The notes: generated by a model not told the origin, from the sequence alone. A stretch of DNA of 64,000 nt from an uncultured Clostridium sp. (GCA_964588775.1 CAZPRO010000001.1:113-64112); one strand, 5' to 3'. Shown: positions 17,940-28,129, counted from the stretch's first letter. Translations and numbers: made by a program.

Positions 17940-18030
17940 CCGCCTCTTACATTGTTATGTTCTATTAATATACAGTTACCCCTAAAAATATTCCCTTCTC
18001 TTAAAAATATGTAACATAAATTTTTAAAAC

Positions 18031-18078
18031 AAAAATAGAACCTGTAATGGAAAACTGTGCATTACAGGTTCTATTTTT
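18031..18078 (-). terminator. rho-independent terminator closing the dynamin-like GTPase operon
   Basis: 19-bp perfect inverted repeat AAAAATAGAACCTGTAATG (18031-18049) / CATTACAGGTTCTATTTTT (18060-18078) with a 10-nt loop and a T-run. It sits 14 nt after the stop at 18092. Confidence 0.8.
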
Positions 18079-18091
18079 ATGTTTTATAAGT

Positions 18092-19870
18092 TTACATTGT
18101 AATTAATAAACATTTATTTAACAAAAAATCTATTTCATTTTTTAATCTTACCAGTTCTTCTGTATTTAAGTCCTTTAGTTCGTTTTCATCATCCTGGAAT
18201 TCATTGCTTAGCTGCTTGTATAATATTGTTATTTGTTCCTTTTTCTTATCTCTTAAAATATCACTGTGTTTTTTTACTGCATATCCTATATCTTCAGCCC
18301 ATTTATTTACAGCTTCACTACTCATTTCTTCTGCATCTTTCTCCCAGTTTATAGATGTAAATAAAGCAAAAACAGAATCCCTAAATATGTTTAAATATTC
18401 TGTTATGGCTTTTATGGATGTTGCTTTTATTACTCTTATAAAATAAGAAAAATGTTTTCCCTTTTCATTGGAAAGTTCATCATTAATTCCTAATTTTTTC
18501 ATATTTGAATAGGTATTTTTTGTTTCCACACCTTTTTCATATTTTCTAAGCATATCTCCTGCTATTTTCTTTATATCATCTTCTATATGTATGTCAATAA
18601 GCCCGCTTAAAACTTCACCATAAGATGGCATTCTTTCTCTAATTTTCCCTTCAAAATCCTTAAGAAGATTTTTTAGTAATTCATCAATCTCTCTCTCTAA
18701 AACTCTCATTTCATCTTCTATATAATTTATAAGATTTTCAGTCTGCTCTGTTGTAAATTTTGATATATAGTATTCTTGAAGAAGATTAATGGTTTCATCT
18801 TTCTTTCTCTTATTTTGTTTATCATATATTATATTATTAATTTCTTCTTTTATGGTTAATGCAGCCTTATCTATATATTTTACTGACGATAATTTAATTT
18901 TAGCATATCCTCTTTCCACATTTTCCATAATTCCAGTTTTTTTATCTAAAAGAGCTTTATATAATTTTATACATTCCTCAATATCCCCTCTTTTTGATTC
19001 AATACCTGCAATTCTAGAATTAATTTTTATGTTACATTCCTGTAAAATGAAATCCTGATACCCTTTTAAATTATGTGCTAATTCTTCTCTTTTACTTTCA
19101 TCATTGGTTCTTTTATAAATATAGTCAAATAGCTGTCTTGTATCAGGATTCTTATCTGGAGAACTCTTTATTAAGAATGACTGTGCTTTTCTTTTTGTAC
19201 ATTTTTCAAAATTTTGTCCTATTTCAATTATTCTTTTATTTTCCTCTGTAACATCCTTAGGACACATTGTAACTGCCAGAATAATTTCAACATCGGAATT
19301 TATTACTTCACCTACATAACTTAAAAACTGAAAATCATATTCACCAAAACCAGCTTTATATGAAACTGTATATACTATAAAATCACTTTCTGGAATAAAT
19401 TCTTTTAAAACTTCTTCATGATAACTTTCTAATGAGCCATATCCAGGAGTATCAAACAATCTAAAATTATCATAGTCTTCATATTTTGACTGACCTATAT
19501 AACGTAGCCTGTGAATATTCTTTAATGGATTTATAACATAAGAATCAAACTGTTCTTTTTCAATTTTTCTGTAAGTACTGTCCTTATTAATTAAATAAAA
19601 AATATCTTCAGTATTTTTTCTAATGACTATTTCAGTTATTATGCTTGTAGTTGGTTTTACACTTTCTTTTAAAACTTTATTTTCAAATAAACTATTTATT
19701 ATTGTGCTTTTCCCACTACTGGTTTCTCCAAGCATGACAACATAATGAGCTGGATTTAATATTCTGTCTTTTATTAAGGAATTTCTATTTATTATTGAAT
19801 CTATTCCCATTTCACGTACTACTCTGTCTATTCTCTTTTGTCTACCTATACATTCCTCAAAAATATCCAT
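18092..19870 (-). CDS. dynamin-like GTPase (DLP-S, no obvious membrane segment)
   Basis: G1 GETSSGKST, G2-region PTTSIIT, G3 DTPG, followed by about 350 aa of Lys/Glu-rich helical sequence. Its SD GGAGG overlaps the stop codon of the upstream gene. Confidence 0.7.
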   Translation of the reverse strand: MDIFEECIGRQKRIDRVVREMGIDSIINRNSLIKDRILNPAHYVVMLGETSSGKSTIINSLFENKVLKESVKPTTSIITEIVIRKNTEDIFYLINKDSTYRKIEKEQFDSYVINPLKNIHRLRYIGQSKYEDYDNFRLFDTPGYGSLESYHEEVLKEFIPESDFIVYTVSYKAGFGEYDFQFLSYVGEVINSDVEIILAVTMCPKDVTEENKRIIEIGQNFEKCTKRKAQSFLIKSSPDKNPDTRQLFDYIYKRTNDESKREELAHNLKGYQDFILQECNIKINSRIAGIESKRGDIEECIKLYKALLDKKTGIMENVERGYAKIKLSSVKYIDKAALTIKEEINNIIYDKQNKRKKDETINLLQEYYISKFTTEQTENLINYIEDEMRVLEREIDELLKNLLKDFEGKIRERMPSYGEVLSGLIDIHIEDDIKKIAGDMLRKYEKGVETKNTYSNMKKLGINDELSNEKGKHFSYFIRVIKATSIKAITEYLNIFRDSVFALFTSINWEKDAEEMSSEAVNKWAEDIGYAVKKHSDILRDKKKEQITILYKQLSNEFQDDENELKDLNTEELVRLKNEIDFLLNKCLLITM

Positions 19871-19881
19871 ATTTTTACCTC

Positions 19882-21657
19882 CTAAGCATAATTTATTCCA
19901 TAGTCTCTTTGAATACTCATTAATAAATCAAAATCTTTCTTAAAACTTTCAATATGTTCTTCTGTATACTGGCTGTCATATTGTTTTTCTATACTTTTTA
20001 TATCATCCTTAAAACTATCTTCTATATTTTTCCTCATTGTTTTCATTGATTCATCAACTTCCAGCTGTTTTGCTCTTAAATCATCAAGTATTTCTTCTTT
20101 TAAATAATTCCTTAAATCTTCTATCATAGGTTTTAAATCCTGCATGGTTAATTCTGCACGAGTTTTTAATATTTCATGCTTCATATAGTCTCCAATAAGA
20201 GAAAATACTATACCAATTCCCATTCCTGTTAGAATACCTATTGGACCACCAAGAACAGAGGCTGCTGTTATTGTTCCTATTATTCCTCCTGATAGTCCAA
20301 GAATTGATGGAAGGGTATTTTCATATTTTACTTCACTTTCTTTGTTAAAAAATGAAATATTTTCATATGTTCCATTAAAATTTTTTATTGTAATGGTTCC
20401 TAATTCTTCATTTAGACTGTCTATTAAAGAACTTACACTTTTTAAAATTTCATCCATAATATCATTAATTGCTTTATCTGAAAGTTCCTTATAAATTACA
20501 CTTAATTTTTTTCCATCAACAATTCCCTTATCTACAATTCCCTTTATATCATAAGTAAGCTTTTCTATTTTCTCATCAATTAAATCTGAGCCTTCATTAA
20601 TTAATTTTTCAAGGCTCTCTTCTGCATTGTTTCTTATGCTTCTAAATCTTTTTTTATTATGACTTATTATGGTTTTTAGTTCATCTATCTTTTTTCCCTT
20701 TTCTGCTTCATTTTCATAACTTTCACGTTCAGCTACTGTACTAAAAGTTACAATCTGATCATGTAAATTTTTAAAGCATTCATTTAATTTTGTTTTTAAA
20801 TTATTTTCAAGATTGTCACTATAATTTTCGCTTACTTTAACAATTTCATTTATAACATTTTGTATACCACTGTCTGCATATTCCTGCAGGCTGTTTTCAA
20901 GGCTTCCTTTTAATGCCTTATATACATTAACTATGTTCACTTTTAAAGTTTTTTTATCATTATGTTCAATTGATATAGTTTCCAGCACACTTTCATTATG
21001 TTCTTTTGCATCTTCTGCATCCTCTGCAGTTTCATCATTCCATTTATTTTGAACAAATATGGTATTAGAAAGCTTTGACCATAAAGCACTTATAAAATTC
21101 TTTTCTGTGCGTGTTATAGGAGGATTAGTACGTATAATAAAAATACCGCATACAAGTTTATTTACATAATCTAAAGTTGTCTGCTGATTTTCAGGAGTAA
21201 GGCTTCCCACTCCTGGCAAATCAACCAAGACTATACCATTCTTTAATATTTCACACTGACTATAAATAATTATTTTTTTTACATTTAATTTATTTGCTTC
21301 ATTATAGTCATTATGAACATACTTTTCCAATTCACTTATATTAATTATTTTTTCAGGTTTATCATGAAAAAAGATTATAGCATCAGTATTATTACCATAT
21401 TTAATTTCTACAGGAACACAGGTTGTTTCGTCAACATCACTTGGCAGTATATTATCATTTCTTAAAACTGCATTTAAAAAACTGCTTTTTCCTGCTCCCT
21501 GAACACCTAAAACTGGCATTATAACCTGATTATTTTCCATATTTTTAATAAAATGATTAAAATATTCAATAACCCCCATTTCCCTGTTTTCATTCTTCAA
21601 ATATTTATCTACAAGATAATTAAACCTTTTGTCATTTATGATTTCTTTATAAATCAT
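19882..21657 (-). CDS. dynamin-like GTPase with predicted membrane-inserting hairpin (DLP-M)
   Basis: G1 GVQGAGKSS, G2-region ETTCVP, G3 DLPG, G4-like NKWND and a helical stalk-like remainder. Gly-rich hydrophobic stretch LPSILGLSGGIIGTITAASVLGGPIGILTGMGIGIVFSLIG lies near aa 445-490. Confidence 0.7.
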   Translation of the reverse strand: MIYKEIINDKRFNYLVDKYLKNENREMGVIEYFNHFIKNMENNQVIMPVLGVQGAGKSSFLNAVLRNDNILPSDVDETTCVPVEIKYGNNTDAIIFFHDKPEKIINISELEKYVHNDYNEANKLNVKKIIIYSQCEILKNGIVLVDLPGVGSLTPENQQTTLDYVNKLVCGIFIIRTNPPITRTEKNFISALWSKLSNTIFVQNKWNDETAEDAEDAKEHNESVLETISIEHNDKKTLKVNIVNVYKALKGSLENSLQEYADSGIQNVINEIVKVSENYSDNLENNLKTKLNECFKNLHDQIVTFSTVAERESYENEAEKGKKIDELKTIISHNKKRFRSIRNNAEESLEKLINEGSDLIDEKIEKLTYDIKGIVDKGIVDGKKLSVIYKELSDKAINDIMDEILKSVSSLIDSLNEELGTITIKNFNGTYENISFFNKESEVKYENTLPSILGLSGGIIGTITAASVLGGPIGILTGMGIGIVFSLIGDYMKHEILKTRAELTMQDLKPMIEDLRNYLKEEILDDLRAKQLEVDESMKTMRKNIEDSFKDDIKSIEKQYDSQYTEEHIESFKKDFDLLMSIQRDYGINYA

Positions 21658-21659
21658 GT

Positions 21660-22295
21660 TTATTCATCTCCATATTTACGTCTATTAAATAATTTATAAA
21701 AAAAAGATTTATTGCTGTATTCCAATTCCTCCATTATACTTTTTAGTTTTTTATCATGTTCTTTTTCATAATTACTAATTGTTTCCATAAGCATATTTTT
21801 TTCATCTATTACGCTTTTTATATTATTCATTTTATCATGAAGCAGCATTTTATTATCAAAAAAATTTCCTTCCACGCTTTTCTTCAGTTCATCAATTTTG
21901 CTGTTAACTGCAATTGTATTATCATTGTTAACTTTAACTCCTTGAAGCAATAGTGATGTATCTTTAATAAGCTTATTTATTCTTTCATTTAATATATTAT
22001 CTTCTTTAAGCATTACATTATTTATACATTCATTTAATACATCTTCTATAGATAAGGTCATTTTTGAAATACTTTTATTTATATCTTCTATTTTCTCAAT
22101 TATTTCTTCATTTTCATCAATTAGATCTTCTTTTAAATCATTAAGCTTTTTTTCTATTGGCCTAATACTAAGAGAAATATCTTTTTGTAATTCTTTTGAA
22201 ATTCTGCTTAATGAACCTGCCATTTCATCAGCCAGTTCTTCCATAATATTTTTAGTTACTTCATCACATTCTATTAATATATCATTATGTTCCAC
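21660..22295 (-). CDS. acidic coiled-coil protein of unknown function (operon partner of the DLPs)
   Basis: 211 aa, strongly Glu/Asp/Lys/Asn-rich with heptad-like periodicity. Basic/aromatic C-terminal tail SFFYKLFNRRKYG. GTG start with AAGGAGA upstream. Its stop is 2 nt from the next start (TAAacATG). Confidence 0.55.
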   Translation of the reverse strand: MEHNDILIECDEVTKNIMEELADEMAGSLSRISKELQKDISLSIRPIEKKLNDLKEDLIDENEEIIEKIEDINKSISKMTLSIEDVLNECINNVMLKEDNILNERINKLIKDTSLLLQGVKVNNDNTIAVNSKIDELKKSVEGNFFDNKMLLHDKMNNIKSVIDEKNMLMETISNYEKEHDKKLKSIMEELEYSNKSFFYKLFNRRKYGDE

Positions 22296-22310
22296 TATGT
22301 ATATTCTCCT

Positions 22311-24776
22311 TTACTGCTCTTTTTCTTTCATGAAAAACAAAAGTATTTCTTCAATTATTTTCCGCTCTTCTGTGCCTCTTGAAAGACAATTCTCAAGAAT
22401 CCGTTCTTTTAATTCCTTATATTCACTTAAAATCATGTTTTTTCTATTCTGACATTCAATAAGAAGCATATTATATATTGGATTTTTTGCACTTATAAGT
22501 ACATAGCCCATATTATTAATATCGTAATTATTTTTTATTTTTTCTCTTAATTCAAAAATATCATGAAGCAGTTCTTTAATTATATCTGCATTTATAAATT
22601 CCCTTGAAGAATCTATAACTATATTTAAATTTGTATTATTCTTTAATAGAAAGTGATTTAGAAAGACACTGTTAATTATATGCTTTTCTGTTGAACTTAT
22701 CTGTATTGCATTTATAATACAATACATAACATAAAATTTTCCAGCCTTGCTTTCTATATAACTAAATAGTTCATCTTTATAAATACAATTTTCATATATT
22801 ATTATTATGTTATCTTTTTCAATGTAACCATTATTTATTAATGATGAAATCTCATGTTTTTCCAAATTCACATTATGAATTCTATATAAAAACTGAAGAT
22901 CTATGGTATAGTCATATATCCAGAATACTTCTGGTGCTTTCATTTTATTAATAAATTTTCCAATTACAGCATAATTTCTTTCATAAAAATTGTGTGCCAG
23001 TTTATAAAGATTAAAATTAGTATTGTTCAGCGAACATTTTATATATTCTTCTTTTTTTAAAAAAGTGCCTTCTATTCTTTCTACATTACTATCTGCATTA
23101 TACTGTCCTTTGATTTTTTCTTTCAAATCCATCAATTCCAGATAAACTTTTTTTATTTCATTTAAGTTATAGTTGAGTTTTTCCTTTTTCTTGTAGCTAT
23201 TTCTATTTTCTTCAATAGTATTATATATATCATTTATACATTGTGCATAATTAGAACTCCAGCTATATAATATGGATGCAAACTTATTTTTATTTTTTTC
23301 ACATATTTCAATGACTTTATTAATAATTGATTCCTTATCAATAACATCTTCATCATAATTTTCCTCATCATATCCCCACTGCTTATTTAACAATGTAGAA
23401 ACAAACCTTTTTCCTCTATTTAATGTACCCTCTTTTTTCACAAGCCTTCTCTTTGTTTCATGCTTTGTCTTTATATCATTTATATCCAGTCCTTCTACAT
23501 GGTCACTGGGAAACATATAACTTTTCCTTAAATCCAGATTTAATTTTAAAAAAATATCTGTCTTTTTACTTTCACAGGCTCTTACAATATTTAAAATATC
23601 CTTTTCTGTCTGAAGATTTTCCTTATTTATACTCCAAATAATATCAAGATAGCTTCCCACTTCATTTGAGCTTTCAGTACATATTTTATCTATTACCTTT
23701 TCAACAACAGTATCTGTACTTTTTATTTTTTCTGCTATTTCATCTCTGCTCTTCTTAAAAAAGGCCATAAGACTTTCTATTTCATAGGCATCTATTTCTA
23801 CAATTCCATTAATTTTTTTTAGCATTTCATCTTCAGTTGAAATTATAAAATCAATTCTTTTTTCTATGCTGTTTAACCTCATTTTATGAAGCTTTGGAAT
23901 TATTTTTTTTGCTGCATTTTCTATAGCATGCACAAATAAATCCAAATTGGATGCTTCATATAAATGTGCATCCTTATACCAAGTTCCCTTTAAAGCATAT
24001 AACGCAGAAATCTGAATAATATCTGCTTCATTTAAGCAGCATGTGTTTAATAAGTTTCTGGCTCTTTCCATATGCTTATTTAATATATCATTCTTGGTTT
24101 CTAAAATAACTCCATCTTTTCCAAGCTTAGGCTCAATAGAATCAATCATATTTTGAATAAAAATAATTTCTTTTCCCTTTTCACTAACATAGGATATTTT
24201 TTCTTTATTAACACTATCGCTGCTAGCTTTAACTGTGCTTAAAAACACACATACATCAATAGTTGGCAGCAAAATTTCCAAAGTAAGCTTCTCATGTACT
24301 TCCAAATCACAGGCATCCAGCCCCGGACTATCTATTATTTGAATATTTTCATTAAATATAAATTCTGGAGTCTTTATATCGATTTGTTGAACATCATACT
24401 TATTTCCTACATTTACACTTTCATCTGCATATTGTTTTATTATTTCTTCATTTAAATCCTGTCCTTCTATTTTAAGCAGGCTTCCATCTCTAAAATAAAT
24501 AAGTGCTTCTTTGTTTACACCCCTGCCACAGGTAATAATAATGCTAGAACTTGGTTTAATGGATACTGGAAGTATTTTTTCTCCCAAAAGTGCATTAACC
24601 AAAGTTGACTTTCCACTGCTTGTCACACCAATCATGGCTATTCTTACTTTTTGTGTAACATGCTCTTCTGCTCTATGTTCAAACCAGCTAATATCGTCTG
24701 CATATCTGTTTTTTCTATATTCATTTTTTGATAAAATATCTATAACTTCTTTTATTATCGTACTTTCTTCCTGCAT
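22311..24776 (-). CDS. large dynamin-like GTPase with about 500-aa uncharacterised C-terminal region (DLP-L)
   Basis: G1 GVTSSGKST, G3 DSPG, G4-like NMID, G5-like ISAL in the first 300 aa or so. Start placed at MQEESTI (ATG 24774-24776, GGAGA 5 nt upstream). The track start at 24788 is the alternative. Confidence 0.7.
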   Translation of the reverse strand: MQEESTIIKEVIDILSKNEYRKNRYADDISWFEHRAEEHVTQKVRIAMIGVTSSGKSTLVNALLGEKILPVSIKPSSSIIITCGRGVNKEALIYFRDGSLLKIEGQDLNEEIIKQYADESVNVGNKYDVQQIDIKTPEFIFNENIQIIDSPGLDACDLEVHEKLTLEILLPTIDVCVFLSTVKASSDSVNKEKISYVSEKGKEIIFIQNMIDSIEPKLGKDGVILETKNDILNKHMERARNLLNTCCLNEADIIQISALYALKGTWYKDAHLYEASNLDLFVHAIENAAKKIIPKLHKMRLNSIEKRIDFIISTEDEMLKKINGIVEIDAYEIESLMAFFKKSRDEIAEKIKSTDTVVEKVIDKICTESSNEVGSYLDIIWSINKENLQTEKDILNIVRACESKKTDIFLKLNLDLRKSYMFPSDHVEGLDINDIKTKHETKRRLVKKEGTLNRGKRFVSTLLNKQWGYDEENYDEDVIDKESIINKVIEICEKNKNKFASILYSWSSNYAQCINDIYNTIEENRNSYKKKEKLNYNLNEIKKVYLELMDLKEKIKGQYNADSNVERIEGTFLKKEEYIKCSLNNTNFNLYKLAHNFYERNYAVIGKFINKMKAPEVFWIYDYTIDLQFLYRIHNVNLEKHEISSLINNGYIEKDNIIIIYENCIYKDELFSYIESKAGKFYVMYCIINAIQISSTEKHIINSVFLNHFLLKNNTNLNIVIDSSREFINADIIKELLHDIFELREKIKNNYDINNMGYVLISAKNPIYNMLLIECQNRKNMILSEYKELKERILENCLSRGTEERKIIEEILLFFMKEKEQ

Positions 24777-24941
24777 TTTTATCTCCATACAAATAACTTA
24801 TCTATGGCTATCTTATCATATTTTTATTACTTAACCAACGATATTTTTCTTAATTTTTATTATATTCACCTTAAAAATCCATTAACTTTGATTTTTTATA
24901 CAATTTTGCAGCCTTTTCTTAATTACAAATAAAATAACAAC

Positions 24942-24970
24942 TTGACTAAGTATTTCATTAAATGTATATT
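24942..24970 (+). promoter_or_regulatory. sigma-A-type promoter for the DAHP synthase gene
   Basis: TTGACT (24942-24947), 17-nt spacer, TATATT (24965-24970), about 37 nt upstream of the ATG at 25007. Confidence 0.45.
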
Positions 24971-25006
24971 TACTAGGTAAGCAATTATATTAATGGGGGG
25001 AACAAA

Positions 25007-27365: not shown

Positions 27366-28001
27366 TTAATCCATTATGTTACAAAGAAATAAATATTGTT
27401 TTCTCATAATTTTATTATACCATTCTGTCTTTATTATACTTATGTAGCCATCTATTAATGATTTTACTTGCTTATCTTTTGAACACTGTTCATATATTGA
27501 AATAGTAAATAGTAATACTATACTTCCACCAATAATTCCTTTAGACATACCTCCCATATTATTTTTTAAAATTAACAATATGGATAATAATATTATTCCA
27601 CATATTGAACCATAACTTATATATTCTATCTTCTTTTTTAATGATTTAACTTTTATTTTTAATTCATCAATGATTTTAACATCATGACAAATTTTTATTA
27701 AATCTTCCTTATACAGTTCCAAAAATTTTTTTGTAATATATTCCATATACTGTTCAGTATATAATTCATCAATATTCATACACATAACAACCTGATATTC
27801 ATAGTCCTCCAAAGCTTTAAACTCATATTCATCATTCTTTTTTAAGCTTGGAATTCTCACCACCACATTAGCCTCAGAATCAAGCGATAATTGGTAATTT
27901 TCATTGGACACACTGCCAAATTCTTCTTTTATTATATCCAAGACAGAATCTAACATCTGATCTGCCAATTTTTTACCTCTTAAATAGTCTAATATTGTCA
28001 T
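27366..28001 (-). CDS. hypothetical membrane-anchored protein
   Basis: Soluble acidic N-terminal half, then two hydrophobic segments (ISYGSICGIILLSILLIL, GIIGGSIVLLFTISIY). Start placed at MTILDYL because an extended -10 (TGATATAAT) lies downstream of the track start at 28091. Confidence 0.5.
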   Translation of the reverse strand: MTILDYLRGKKLADQMLDSVLDIIKEEFGSVSNENYQLSLDSEANVVVRIPSLKKNDEYEFKALEDYEYQVVMCMNIDELYTEQYMEYITKKFLELYKEDLIKICHDVKIIDELKIKVKSLKKKIEYISYGSICGIILLSILLILKNNMGGMSKGIIGGSIVLLFTISIYEQCSKDKQVKSLIDGYISIIKTEWYNKIMRKQYLFLCNIMD

Positions 28002-28041
28002 ATTACATCCACTCACTTTATATATAATCATGTATATATCC

Positions 28042-28050
28042 ATTATATCA
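28042..28050 (-). promoter_or_regulatory. extended -10 promoter element (TGaTATAAT)
   Basis: The reverse complement of 28042-28050 reads TGATATAAT, about 40 nt upstream of the ATG at 28001. Confidence 0.4.
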
Positions 28051-28129
28051 CAATTAATATATAAAGTAACGTTATTATATTGTTTTTCCATATATGTAAA
28101 TTATATTTCTTTGCTAAAAAAATACAACA

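Follow-up and report, generated by a model that had tools for sequence, protein, structure and literature searches.

Bacterial dynamin-like proteins (DLPs) are known as single genes, pairs or fusions. To our knowledge, their only established immune role is that of the two-gene Eleos system, the mechanism of which is still unknown. Eleos is a two-gene dynamin operon that occurs across many phyla and has defence systems as neighbours in about 60% of instances. In Bacillus subtilis, it confers protection against the jumbo phages AR9 and PBS1, for which both P-loops are needed. The present analysis concerns a stretch of 64,000 nucleotides (nt) from an uncultured Clostridium sp. (GCA_964588775.1 CAZPRO010000001.1:113-64112), referred to below as the window. 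On its minus strand, at 18092-24788, open reading frame (ORF) calling finds four co-directional, tightly packed genes, three of which encode dynamin-like GTPases. This cluster is interpreted as the reduced form of a mobile triple-dynamin module that probably acts at the membrane against phages or mobile elements, a reading to which a probability of about 0.55 is given. The structural and comparative part of this reading is close to certain. The anti-phage or anti-mobile-element function is suggested for the family as a whole because of its genomic company, and it is less secure for the reduced subtype to which the window copy belongs.

Three GTPases and a coiled-coil partner in one unit

The four genes are designated A, X, B and C in the order of transcription. 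Two of the GTPases resemble the bacterial dynamin-like protein (BDLP) of Nostoc punctiforme over most of their length.

22311-24788, minus strand: gene A, an ORF of 825 amino acids (aa); dynamin-like GTPase in which the G domain is accompanied by a helical neck and trunk of BDLP type and by an additional domain at the C-terminus
21660-22295, minus strand: gene X, 211 aa with a GTG start; acidic coiled-coil protein, putative adaptor
19882-21657, minus strand: gene B, 591 aa; full-length BDLP-type dynamin-like GTPase
18092-19870, minus strand: gene C, 592 aa; the most divergent dynamin-like GTPase of the three

A and B are established members of the dynamin superfamily, within the BDLP/mitofusin class, and C is established as a member of the superfamily for its G domain only. 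The Pfam Dynamin_N profile is matched at 62.9 bits by A, 85.2 bits by B and 55.4 bits by C, all above the gathering score of 27 bits. In all three proteins the G1, switch I and G3 motifs are complete and conserved; G4 is typical in A and B but atypical in C. An original prediction, made from the DNA sequence alone, had described a compact unit of three dynamin-superfamily GTPases with a dedicated coiled-coil protein, a description that the profile and structure comparisons bear out. The signatures on which it relied (GVTSSGKST/DSPG, GVQGAGKSS/DLPG and GETSSGKST/DTPG) are present and are conserved in orthologues. Its term "paralogous" holds at the level of the superfamily but not more closely, as A, B and C match one another at only 27-41 bits and in the G domain only. 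The stalk can be superposed on BDLPs for A (model against 2j69) and for B (profile against 2j68), while the matches of C are weak and mainly confined to the G domain. As a candidate membrane-binding hairpin or paddle, B has a hydrophobic hairpin; A has a basic insert at a similar position, and the C protein of the window has neither.

For gene B, a profile built from 20 orthologues aligns with Nostoc BDLP from profile position 33 to 600, on residues 58-685 of 2j68 (E value 9.6e-31). The G1 (GVQGAGKSS), switch I (DETTCVP) and G3 (DLPG) motifs are invariant, and G4 reads NKW-N-D. One further element distinguishes this protein.

20185-20307, minus strand: glycine-zipper hydrophobic hairpin of B (aa 451-491), SILGLSGGIIGTITAASVLGGPIGILTGMGIGIVFSLIGDY; predicted membrane anchor

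The hairpin occupies the same position in all 12 B proteins compared (that of the window and 11 orthologues), and the small-xxx-small repeats of B are concentrated in it. It is therefore predicted, from these sequence properties, to be the membrane anchor of the protein.

Gene A combines a BDLP-like body with additions of its own, which are located as follows.

23979-24647, minus strand: G domain of A (aa 48-270), with G1 GVTSSGKST, switch I KPSSS, G3 DSPG and G4 QNMID
23340-23468, minus strand: basic beta-hairpin/helix insert of A (aa 441-483), within the helical body, with conserved Lys and Arg
22314-23033, minus strand: alpha/beta domain at the C-terminus of A (aa 586-825), connected to the body through a disordered linker (aa 565-585)

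Orthologues of A are 40-59% identical within Clostridium and 25-38% identical in other phyla. The G-domain motifs vary little or not at all among 25 Clostridium homologues and are kept in distant orthologues, with G4 following the pattern N(M/K)xD. An AlphaFold2 model of A, with a predicted local distance difference test score (pLDDT) of 78, consists of a G domain, a long helical body, a disordered linker and a compact alpha/beta domain (aa 589-821). In Foldseek, the best match of the model is Nostoc BDLP (2j69, E value 2.9e-15, 689 columns), and further matches include Campylobacter jejuni DLP (Cj-DLP), IniA, mitofusins and SynDLP, with LeoA at rank 34 (E value 2.2e-7). The structural comparison, which the original prediction had recommended and which was run for A, thus places the body of this protein with BDLP, Cj-DLP, IniA and the mitofusins.

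The basic insert of A is modelled as strand 441-451, helix 455-467 and strand 473-483, and its residues K442, K452, K460 and R461 are invariant. Its position in the sequence is similar to that of the hydrophobic hairpin of B, and no hydrophobic segment was found outside the G domain of A. The insert may form the tip of the trunk and bind anionic lipid.

The C-terminal domain of A is modelled with confidence on its own (pLDDT 87.9; predicted template-modelling score 0.86). It has no Walker A motif or P-loop, and a Foldseek search against the PDB returned nothing at E<=1e-3. Weak but consistent matches are to small-GTPase folds (Sar1/Arf, Gtr1/Rag, Ras and EF-Tu; template-modelling scores 0.3-0.5), which point weakly to a small-GTPase-like fold. 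Derivation of the domain from a duplicated G domain was considered and rejected, hhalign comparisons with the G domains of A, B and C being negative (probability below 1%). The domain is rare: among 1.84 billion cluster representatives, it was detected in 54. Long matches (about 730-875 aa) have it at the C-terminus, and the shorter ones may be fragments.

In gene C, the G1 (GETSSGKST) and G3 (DTPG) motifs are invariant. The G4 motif takes the form N(R/M)xP, reading TMCP in the window (aa ~200-206, in the 19240-19270 region), and does not contain the Asp that usually specifies guanine. This residue is missing from the orthologues of all phyla examined, and the nucleotide specificity of C is thus in question. 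Compared with the PDB, the C profile gives weak matches, mainly to G domains, of which mitofusin/Fzo1 reaches an E value of ~5e-6 and the longest extends to profile position 343. No hydrophobic segment was found in the C protein of the window.

The product of gene X matches no Pfam family. In 75 of 76 loci, the space separating A from B nevertheless contains an ORF of at least 80 aa (range 87-479 aa), and the X proteins of Clostridium loci match that of the window directly at 59-203 bits. Across all loci, the X proteins are too divergent for full-length alignment, and they consist of two conserved ends with a middle of variable length.

22230-22280, minus strand: N-terminal motif of X, ILIECDEVTKNIMEEL, with the pattern h-x-h-x-x-D-x-x-T
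21672-21710, minus strand: basic-aromatic C-terminal tail of X, KSFFYKLFNRRKY; candidate membrane-targeting helix

The N-terminal motif is found in X proteins of six phyla, and a regular expression for it matches 60 of the 75 X proteins. It may be the peptide by which X docks on one of the GTPases. The tail motif occurs in 50 of 68 distinct X proteins, as opposed to 1 of 326 internal 40-aa windows. Tails from other loci include PWYKKIF, PFYKKWF and PGYKRFF. With a net charge of +3 to +6 and a hydrophobic moment of 0.41-0.74, the tail could target X to the membrane.

The arrangement of the four genes suggests, from their spacing, that they are co-transcribed as one operon. At the junction of A and X, the stop codon TAA is followed by AGGAG and the GTG start within a gap of 15 nt. 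The junction of X and B reads TAAacATG, with a gap of 2 nt. Between B and C, the sequence TAGGAGG overlaps the stop codon of B, with ATG 8 nt further on and a gap of 11 nt. Each of the junctions has a Shine-Dalgarno sequence. The original prediction had listed co-directional minus-strand ORFs with gaps of 2-15 nt, the TAAacATG junction, a Shine-Dalgarno GGAGG overlapping a TAG stop and a closing hairpin; its ORF coordinates proved exact, and direct reading of the junctions agreed with it. The ends of the unit are as follows.

18025-18086, minus strand: intrinsic terminator that ends the unit, upstream of spoIIIAA; 18 perfect pairs and 7 outer pairs, then a U-run
24789-25006, between the genes: intergenic region of 218 nt, common to the unit and a divergent gene for 3-deoxy-D-arabino-heptulosonate 7-phosphate (DAHP) synthase; presumed promoter site

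The terminator hairpin that follows C has a folding energy of -26.8 kcal/mol (z = -8.3), none of 200 shuffled sequences being as stable, and UUUUUGUUUU lies directly after it. A consensus terminator scan missed this hairpin, the loop of which is longer than 8 nt. The promoter of the unit presumably lies within 24789-25006, where direct reading reveals a TATAAT-like element ~70 nt upstream of the start codon of A. A consensus promoter scan found 47 sites against 50 expected from shuffled sequences and did not flag this element. The first ATG of A is not preceded by a Shine-Dalgarno sequence. Because GGAG lies 6 nt upstream of the second ATG (24776), the corresponding Met5 does not vary among homologues and the database entry for this protein has 821 aa, translation probably starts at 24776, giving a product of 821 aa from a coding sequence 12 nt shorter than the ORF. 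The GC content is 0.24 over X and the 3' half of A (window 21500-23500), compared with 0.29-0.31 in the flanking genes, and it ranges from 0.24 to 0.29 over the whole cluster.

A conserved module and its four-gene subtype

The same gene order, with A (~840 aa), the coiled-coil X, B (~600 aa) and C (~600 aa), was recovered in 66 fetched loci by means of profile hidden Markov models (HMMs) and a metagenome scan. Homologues of A, annotated merely as "dynamin family protein", occur in Clostridium beijerinckii, C. botulinum, C. taeniosporum, C. puniceum, C. gelidum, C. uliginosum, C. manihotivorum and C. neonatale, and both C. beijerinckii and C. manihotivorum have the same four genes in the same order. 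A scan of one genome per species found the order A, gap, B, C also in Flavobacterium, Sphaerotilus, a Synergistales bacterium, Cloacimonadota, Faecalibacterium and further taxa. The module is further present in Paenibacillus, on a megaplasmid, and in gut and rumen metagenomes, so that it is scattered over at least six phyla. Each of these proteins has its highest score with the corresponding protein of the window (A with A, B with B, C with C). Consequently, the triplication is old, and the unit has been transferred in its entirety.

In most lineages outside one Clostridium group, a further gene, E, directly follows C. It encodes a helical protein of 123-168 aa with the motif ADNMxxIIDIAKxIV and is often followed by F, which encodes a small helical protein of ~107 aa. 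Neither belongs to a Pfam family. Examples of the E/F region, given by locus number and position, include L003:17156-17982, L084:9880-10650, L086:16591-17305, L087:18852-19656 and L012:16743-17207, among others. E is present in 45 of the 66 loci, which form 36 groups at 80% identity of A, and F stands behind E in many of them. Another 18 loci contain at least 1 kb of sequence after C without E or F, and all 18 are of the Clostridium type represented by the window. A six-frame HMM search found neither E nor F anywhere in the window. C. manihotivorum keeps E and F although its A, B and C closely resemble those of the four-gene type, and the loss of E and F therefore apparently took place within Clostridium. 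Judged by its gene content, the window cluster is a reduced four-gene subtype of a five- or six-gene module, A-X-B-C-E-F.

Some loci depart from this order. In a Lachnospira contig (L015:2179-7851), A and X are followed by a methyl-accepting-chemotaxis-like protein that replaces B and C, and this may be a decayed or rearranged copy. In three gut-metagenome loci (L155:5849-8011, L156:2084-4521 and L151:3822-5684), the match to A is truncated and the distance from A to B is 1.9-2.4 kb instead of 0.3-1.3 kb, which suggests an insertion or a disrupted A. In the Synergistales locus (L014:8239-11440), three tandem GTPase genes lie ~0.25 kb past F; all three match MMR_HSR1 and the first two also match DUF697. 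They form a second multi-GTPase cluster adjoining the triple-dynamin one.

Genomic context and proposed function

The module is horizontally mobile. It occupies varied clostridial sites, resides on a Paenibacillus megaplasmid, is flanked by two transposases in one case, is scattered over phyla and carries the rare C-terminal domain of A. A phage or prophage origin was considered and rejected, no copy being found in 50,697 phage records or in IMG/VR.

Full-length modules, which possess E/F, are found beside bacteriophage exclusion (BREX) genes, type I and type IIG restriction-modification, GmrSD, Dpd, AbiC/KAP, CRISPR type III, DRT and transposases, and SspE/HEC-06-like genes are also among their neighbours. 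Individual cases are listed below.

C. manihotivorum: type I hsdMSR adjoining the module on its upstream side; on the downstream side, genes for a DNA methylase, AAA_5 and a transposase
One metagenome-assembled genome: PglZ and BrxL (BREX), ending 224 nt before A
Cloacimonadota: a type IIG restriction-modification enzyme 2.6 kb downstream
Sphaerotilus: a NERD helicase as neighbour
Flavobacterium: two GmrSD genes and a WYL-WCX gene
Paenibacillus megaplasmid: flanked at one end by DpdJ/DpdD with a UvrD helicase, and at the opposite end by AbiC with a KAP NTPase
One contig: module enclosed between transposases
Another contig: an AAA_5 gene and a 968-aa protein

A separate set of 21 metagenome loci, with 137 neighbour proteins, gives a similar inventory. 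The commonest neighbour family is WYL (7), with WCX (4), and TmtA, PDC-S05, type I restriction-modification, Cas10/Cas6, a DRT reverse-transcriptase helicase, GmrSD, resolvases and IS66 also occur. WYL genes lie near the module in at least 10 of the 36 non-redundant full-length loci, many of them less than 1 kb away (24-990 nt ahead of A or 32-760 nt beyond the last module gene) and a few at 1.5-3 kb. WYL-WCX genes were located at L084:1868-2842, L012:17603-18514, L137:17615-18622, L165:8748-9932 and 17963-18958, and L120:17683-18630. In L137 and L165, a gene for a helix-turn-helix (HTH)-WYL-WCX protein stands on each side of the module, and the window contains none. HTH-WYL-WCX proteins are BrxR/CapW-type regulators, which control many defence systems.

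On this basis, the following mechanism may be proposed. B, a full-length BDLP-type GTPase, would be anchored in the cytoplasmic membrane by its glycine-zipper hairpin. A, a BDLP-like GTPase, would carry its family-specific alpha/beta domain, which has no P-loop, on a flexible linker, and C would be the third GTPase, which is divergent and has a changed guanine-specificity motif. X would act as a coiled-coil adaptor of variable length that docks a GTPase through its N-terminal motif and reaches the membrane with its basic-aromatic tail. A, B and C may form a hetero-oligomer at the membrane, where a trigger would be sensed through the extra domain of A, through X, or through both. GTP-dependent pairing of G domains could then drive local membrane remodelling, with the outcome that the membrane is either sealed and stabilised against phage entry or lysis, or disrupted to abort infection. 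A more specific version is tentative and, taken as a whole, rather doubtful. It posits a new class of membrane-acting immune system in which X and the GTPase-like C-terminal domain of A together sense infection and license hetero-dimerisation of the G domains, the hairpin of B seals or opens the membrane, and, in most lineages, a BrxR/CapW-type WYL repressor holds the system off; it would be a prokaryotic counterpart of the dynamin-like immune GTPases that animals possess as sets of paralogues (Mx, GBP, IRG and GIMAP).

Several observations weigh against the immune reading. The evidence from defence neighbours is a count on a few dozen loci, made without a genome-wide background rate, and some full-length loci, such as L086, have ordinary neighbours. 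No toxin or nuclease effector is recognisable in the module. The tblastn search of the phage records and the IMG/VR comparison produced no match that would hint at an arms race. The small-GTPase-like assignment of the C-terminal domain of A is weak. The window copy itself has housekeeping neighbours and no defence genes nearby, and most four-gene Clostridium loci likewise lie among housekeeping genes (aroG, prs, pabABC, alr, hydrogenase) and are without E, F or WYL. Finally, the stalks diverge quickly between close relatives, as described below, but fast divergence is also expected of coiled-coil regions under weak constraint. The original suggestion of an accessory, defence-like element fits the wider family, with its defence islands and mobile DNA; it had not taken the housekeeping neighbours of the window copy into account.

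In one alternative, the module serves housekeeping or stress-response membrane maintenance, as do B. subtilis DynA and mycobacterial IniA/IniC. Its task would then be to mend or stabilise the cytoplasmic membrane when the envelope is damaged, and not to provide dedicated immunity. The closest solved relatives (BDLP, Cj-DLP, IniA and mitofusins) are membrane-remodelling DLPs, B has a membrane hairpin, and a toxin-like effector is missing. In addition, the four-gene Clostridium loci lie among metabolic genes and apparently pass vertically with aroG-prs in at least two species. Given housekeeping neighbours and the absence of E, F and WYL, the four-gene subtype may have been domesticated for another membrane task. 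However, the family is not core but rare and patchy, with 54 clusters for the signature domain of A. The module moves between phyla and onto a plasmid, it recurs in defence islands next to WYL-WCX regulators, and it is not obvious why maintenance should require a trio of specialised GTPases together with an adaptor and a further pair of small proteins. This alternative is thus considered unlikely, although it has the most to recommend it among those weighed here. The two readings also overlap, as membrane repair of the DynA type itself gives some phage tolerance.

The neighbourhood of the window copy raises another question. Downstream of the cluster lie spo0A, spoIVB, recN, dxs, xseA and spoIIIAH-AA, and upstream lie the divergent DAHP-synthase gene (aroG) and then prs. 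The placement of the cluster at the edge of the spo0A-to-spoIIIA block, which the original prediction had pointed out, was confirmed. This placement had led to the suggestion of a link to sporulation, in which the GTPases would remodel membranes (engulfment or fission of the forespore membrane) together with the spoIIIA channel genes. The cluster is indeed immediately upstream of spoIIIAA and on the same strand in the window, and Streptomyces DynA/DynB, dynamins of sporulation septation, provide a precedent. However, a strong terminator separates the cluster from spoIIIAA, no spoIIIA genes lie near the module in the other fetched loci, and the module occurs in non-sporulating phyla; Flavobacterium, Sphaerotilus, Synergistales, Cloacimonadota and the varied clostridial sites all speak against the link. 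For the window, a role in sporulation is accordingly given very little credence, and at the level of the family it is effectively excluded.

Comparison with relatives explains the adjacency itself. Four-gene Clostridium clusters occupy a pabABC/alr site in the beijerinckii group and an aroG-prs site in the window and in C. neonatale. C. neonatale keeps the aroG-prs flank, but its downstream flank is unrelated and there is no spoIIIA beside the cluster. In C. butyricum, a species missing from the listed named homologues of A, the genes ahead of spoIIIAA are not the cluster but efp and a gene of 120 aa, and the same 120-aa gene precedes spoIIIAA in the closest SpoIIIAA relative (77% identity; L092:6728-7821, on a short contig). 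In the window, efp and the 120-aa gene are not upstream of spoIIIAA (17940-18091), and synteny breaks exactly at the 3' end of the cluster. Because the C. neonatale flank is without spoIIIA and these other genes precede spoIIIAA in relatives, the adjacency of the cluster and spoIIIA is, on gene order, a rearrangement peculiar to the lineage of the window. Insertion into an intact spoIIIAA-aroG junction, as originally proposed, is contradicted by C. neonatale, by C. butyricum and by the closest SpoIIIAA relative, and was rejected: relatives have efp and the 120-aa gene at that place, and the cluster travels with aroG-prs.

The genes at this site differ in their rate of change. Between the window and C. 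neonatale, identity is 91% for prs and 87% for DAHP synthase, compared with 51% for A, 51% for X, 66% for B and 65% for C. Within the cluster, the G domains share 70-88% identity, and the stalks, the extra domain of A and X share 18-56%. A gene at 27366-28091 on the minus strand encodes a 241-aa protein that matches no Pfam family and shares only 50% identity with the corresponding C. neonatale protein, while the adjoining prs and DAHP-synthase genes are at 87-91%. The neighbourhood of the cluster thus contains another gene that evolves fast.

Should the immune reading of the triple-dynamin module be correct, a candidate defence system would be added to the catalogue, a natural example of dynamin paralogues that share out the tasks of anchor, sensor and partner would become open to structural dissection, and the link between bacterial and animal dynamin-like immune GTPases would become stronger. 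For annotation, the trios of "dynamin family protein" genes in Clostridium, Paenibacillus, Flavobacterium and gut and rumen metagenomes can be treated as one definable system with two subtypes. For the window, a tempting but false link to sporulation is removed.

Comparison with known systems

Neither a full-text literature search nor the PADLOC 2023 models yielded a description of a bacterial operon with three dynamins, within the limited libraries searched. This agrees with the original prediction, in which no described system was recognised. Among NCBIfam models, none came near its cut-off for the cluster proteins. The only defence models with matches attributable to homology are the Eleos models of PADLOC, which comprise 559-601 positions and are matched weakly and partially: LeoBC matches A at 53.8 bits (aa 42-389) and B at 47.2 bits (aa 261-576), and LeoA matches C at 35.4 bits, with a best stretch of ~40 aa. 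Matches of X to the PADLOC models LmuB, ZorA and LeoA were set aside as likely coiled-coil noise.

These matches raise the possibility of a divergent Eleos system (LeoA/LeoBC or LeoABC) to which one dynamin gene has been added. All three GTPases match Leo models, the LeoA structure is among the Foldseek matches of A, and both multi-dynamin operons occur in defence islands. The model matches are, however, weak and partial, that of C to LeoA covering only about 40 residues. The sequences of A, B and C do not find LeoA in the PDB at E<=1, although they find BDLP, mitofusins, Cj-DLP and IniA. Eleos is defined without the coiled-coil X, without E and F and without an equivalent of the C-terminal domain of A, and the order A-X-B-C(-E-F) is kept as a unit of its own in 66 loci. 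A divergent Eleos is accordingly judged improbable, as the locus differs from Eleos/LeoABC in gene content.

With Eleos (LeoA/LeoBC, or LeoABC of enterotoxigenic Escherichia coli), the triple-dynamin module shares an operon of several dynamin-superfamily GTPases, an association with defence islands and intact P-loops. Co-location with known defence systems, as in Eleos, is seen for the triple-dynamin family but not for the window locus, and the count has no genome-wide background rate to set it against. Eleos consists of two genes, or three if LeoBC is split, in contrast to three full-length, mutually divergent DLPs with X and usually E/F here. It has no described counterpart of the C-terminal domain of A, the glycine-zipper hairpin of B or the motifs of X.

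Nostoc punctiforme BDLP (2j68/2j69) is the relative closest to A and B in both structure and sequence. It is built of a G domain, a helical neck and trunk, and a membrane-binding tip. However, BDLP is a single protein that forms homo-oligomeric coats, whereas in the present module only B keeps the hydrophobic tip, A has a putative basic tip and an added domain, and C is highly divergent.

Campylobacter jejuni DLP1/DLP2 (5owv) are likewise encoded by adjacent genes, are presumed to tether membranes as a hetero-oligomer and are among the top structural matches. They differ in being a pair and not a trio, in having no adaptor gene between them and in a sequence similarity limited to the G domain. 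We know of no defence-island context for this pair.

The mycobacterial iniBAC operon resembles the module in combining two DLPs with a non-GTPase partner and in its connection with membrane stress, and IniA (6j72) is a structural match. It contains two DLPs instead of three, and it is chromosomal and lineage-specific, not mobile. IniB is a Gly-rich protein and not a coiled coil with end motifs of the X type.

B. subtilis DynA offers a parallel in that multiple G domains act together at the membrane and confer phage tolerance by delayed lysis. It is, in contrast, a single fused polypeptide encoded by a core gene, without partners such as X, E and F. The DynA model (NCBIfam NF052648) gives only weak and partial matches, the best at 44.7 bits against a cut-off of 1600, and the window genes are separate. 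The cluster is therefore neither a pair of the Campylobacter type nor a fusion of the DynA type, but a set of three separate DLP genes with X among them.

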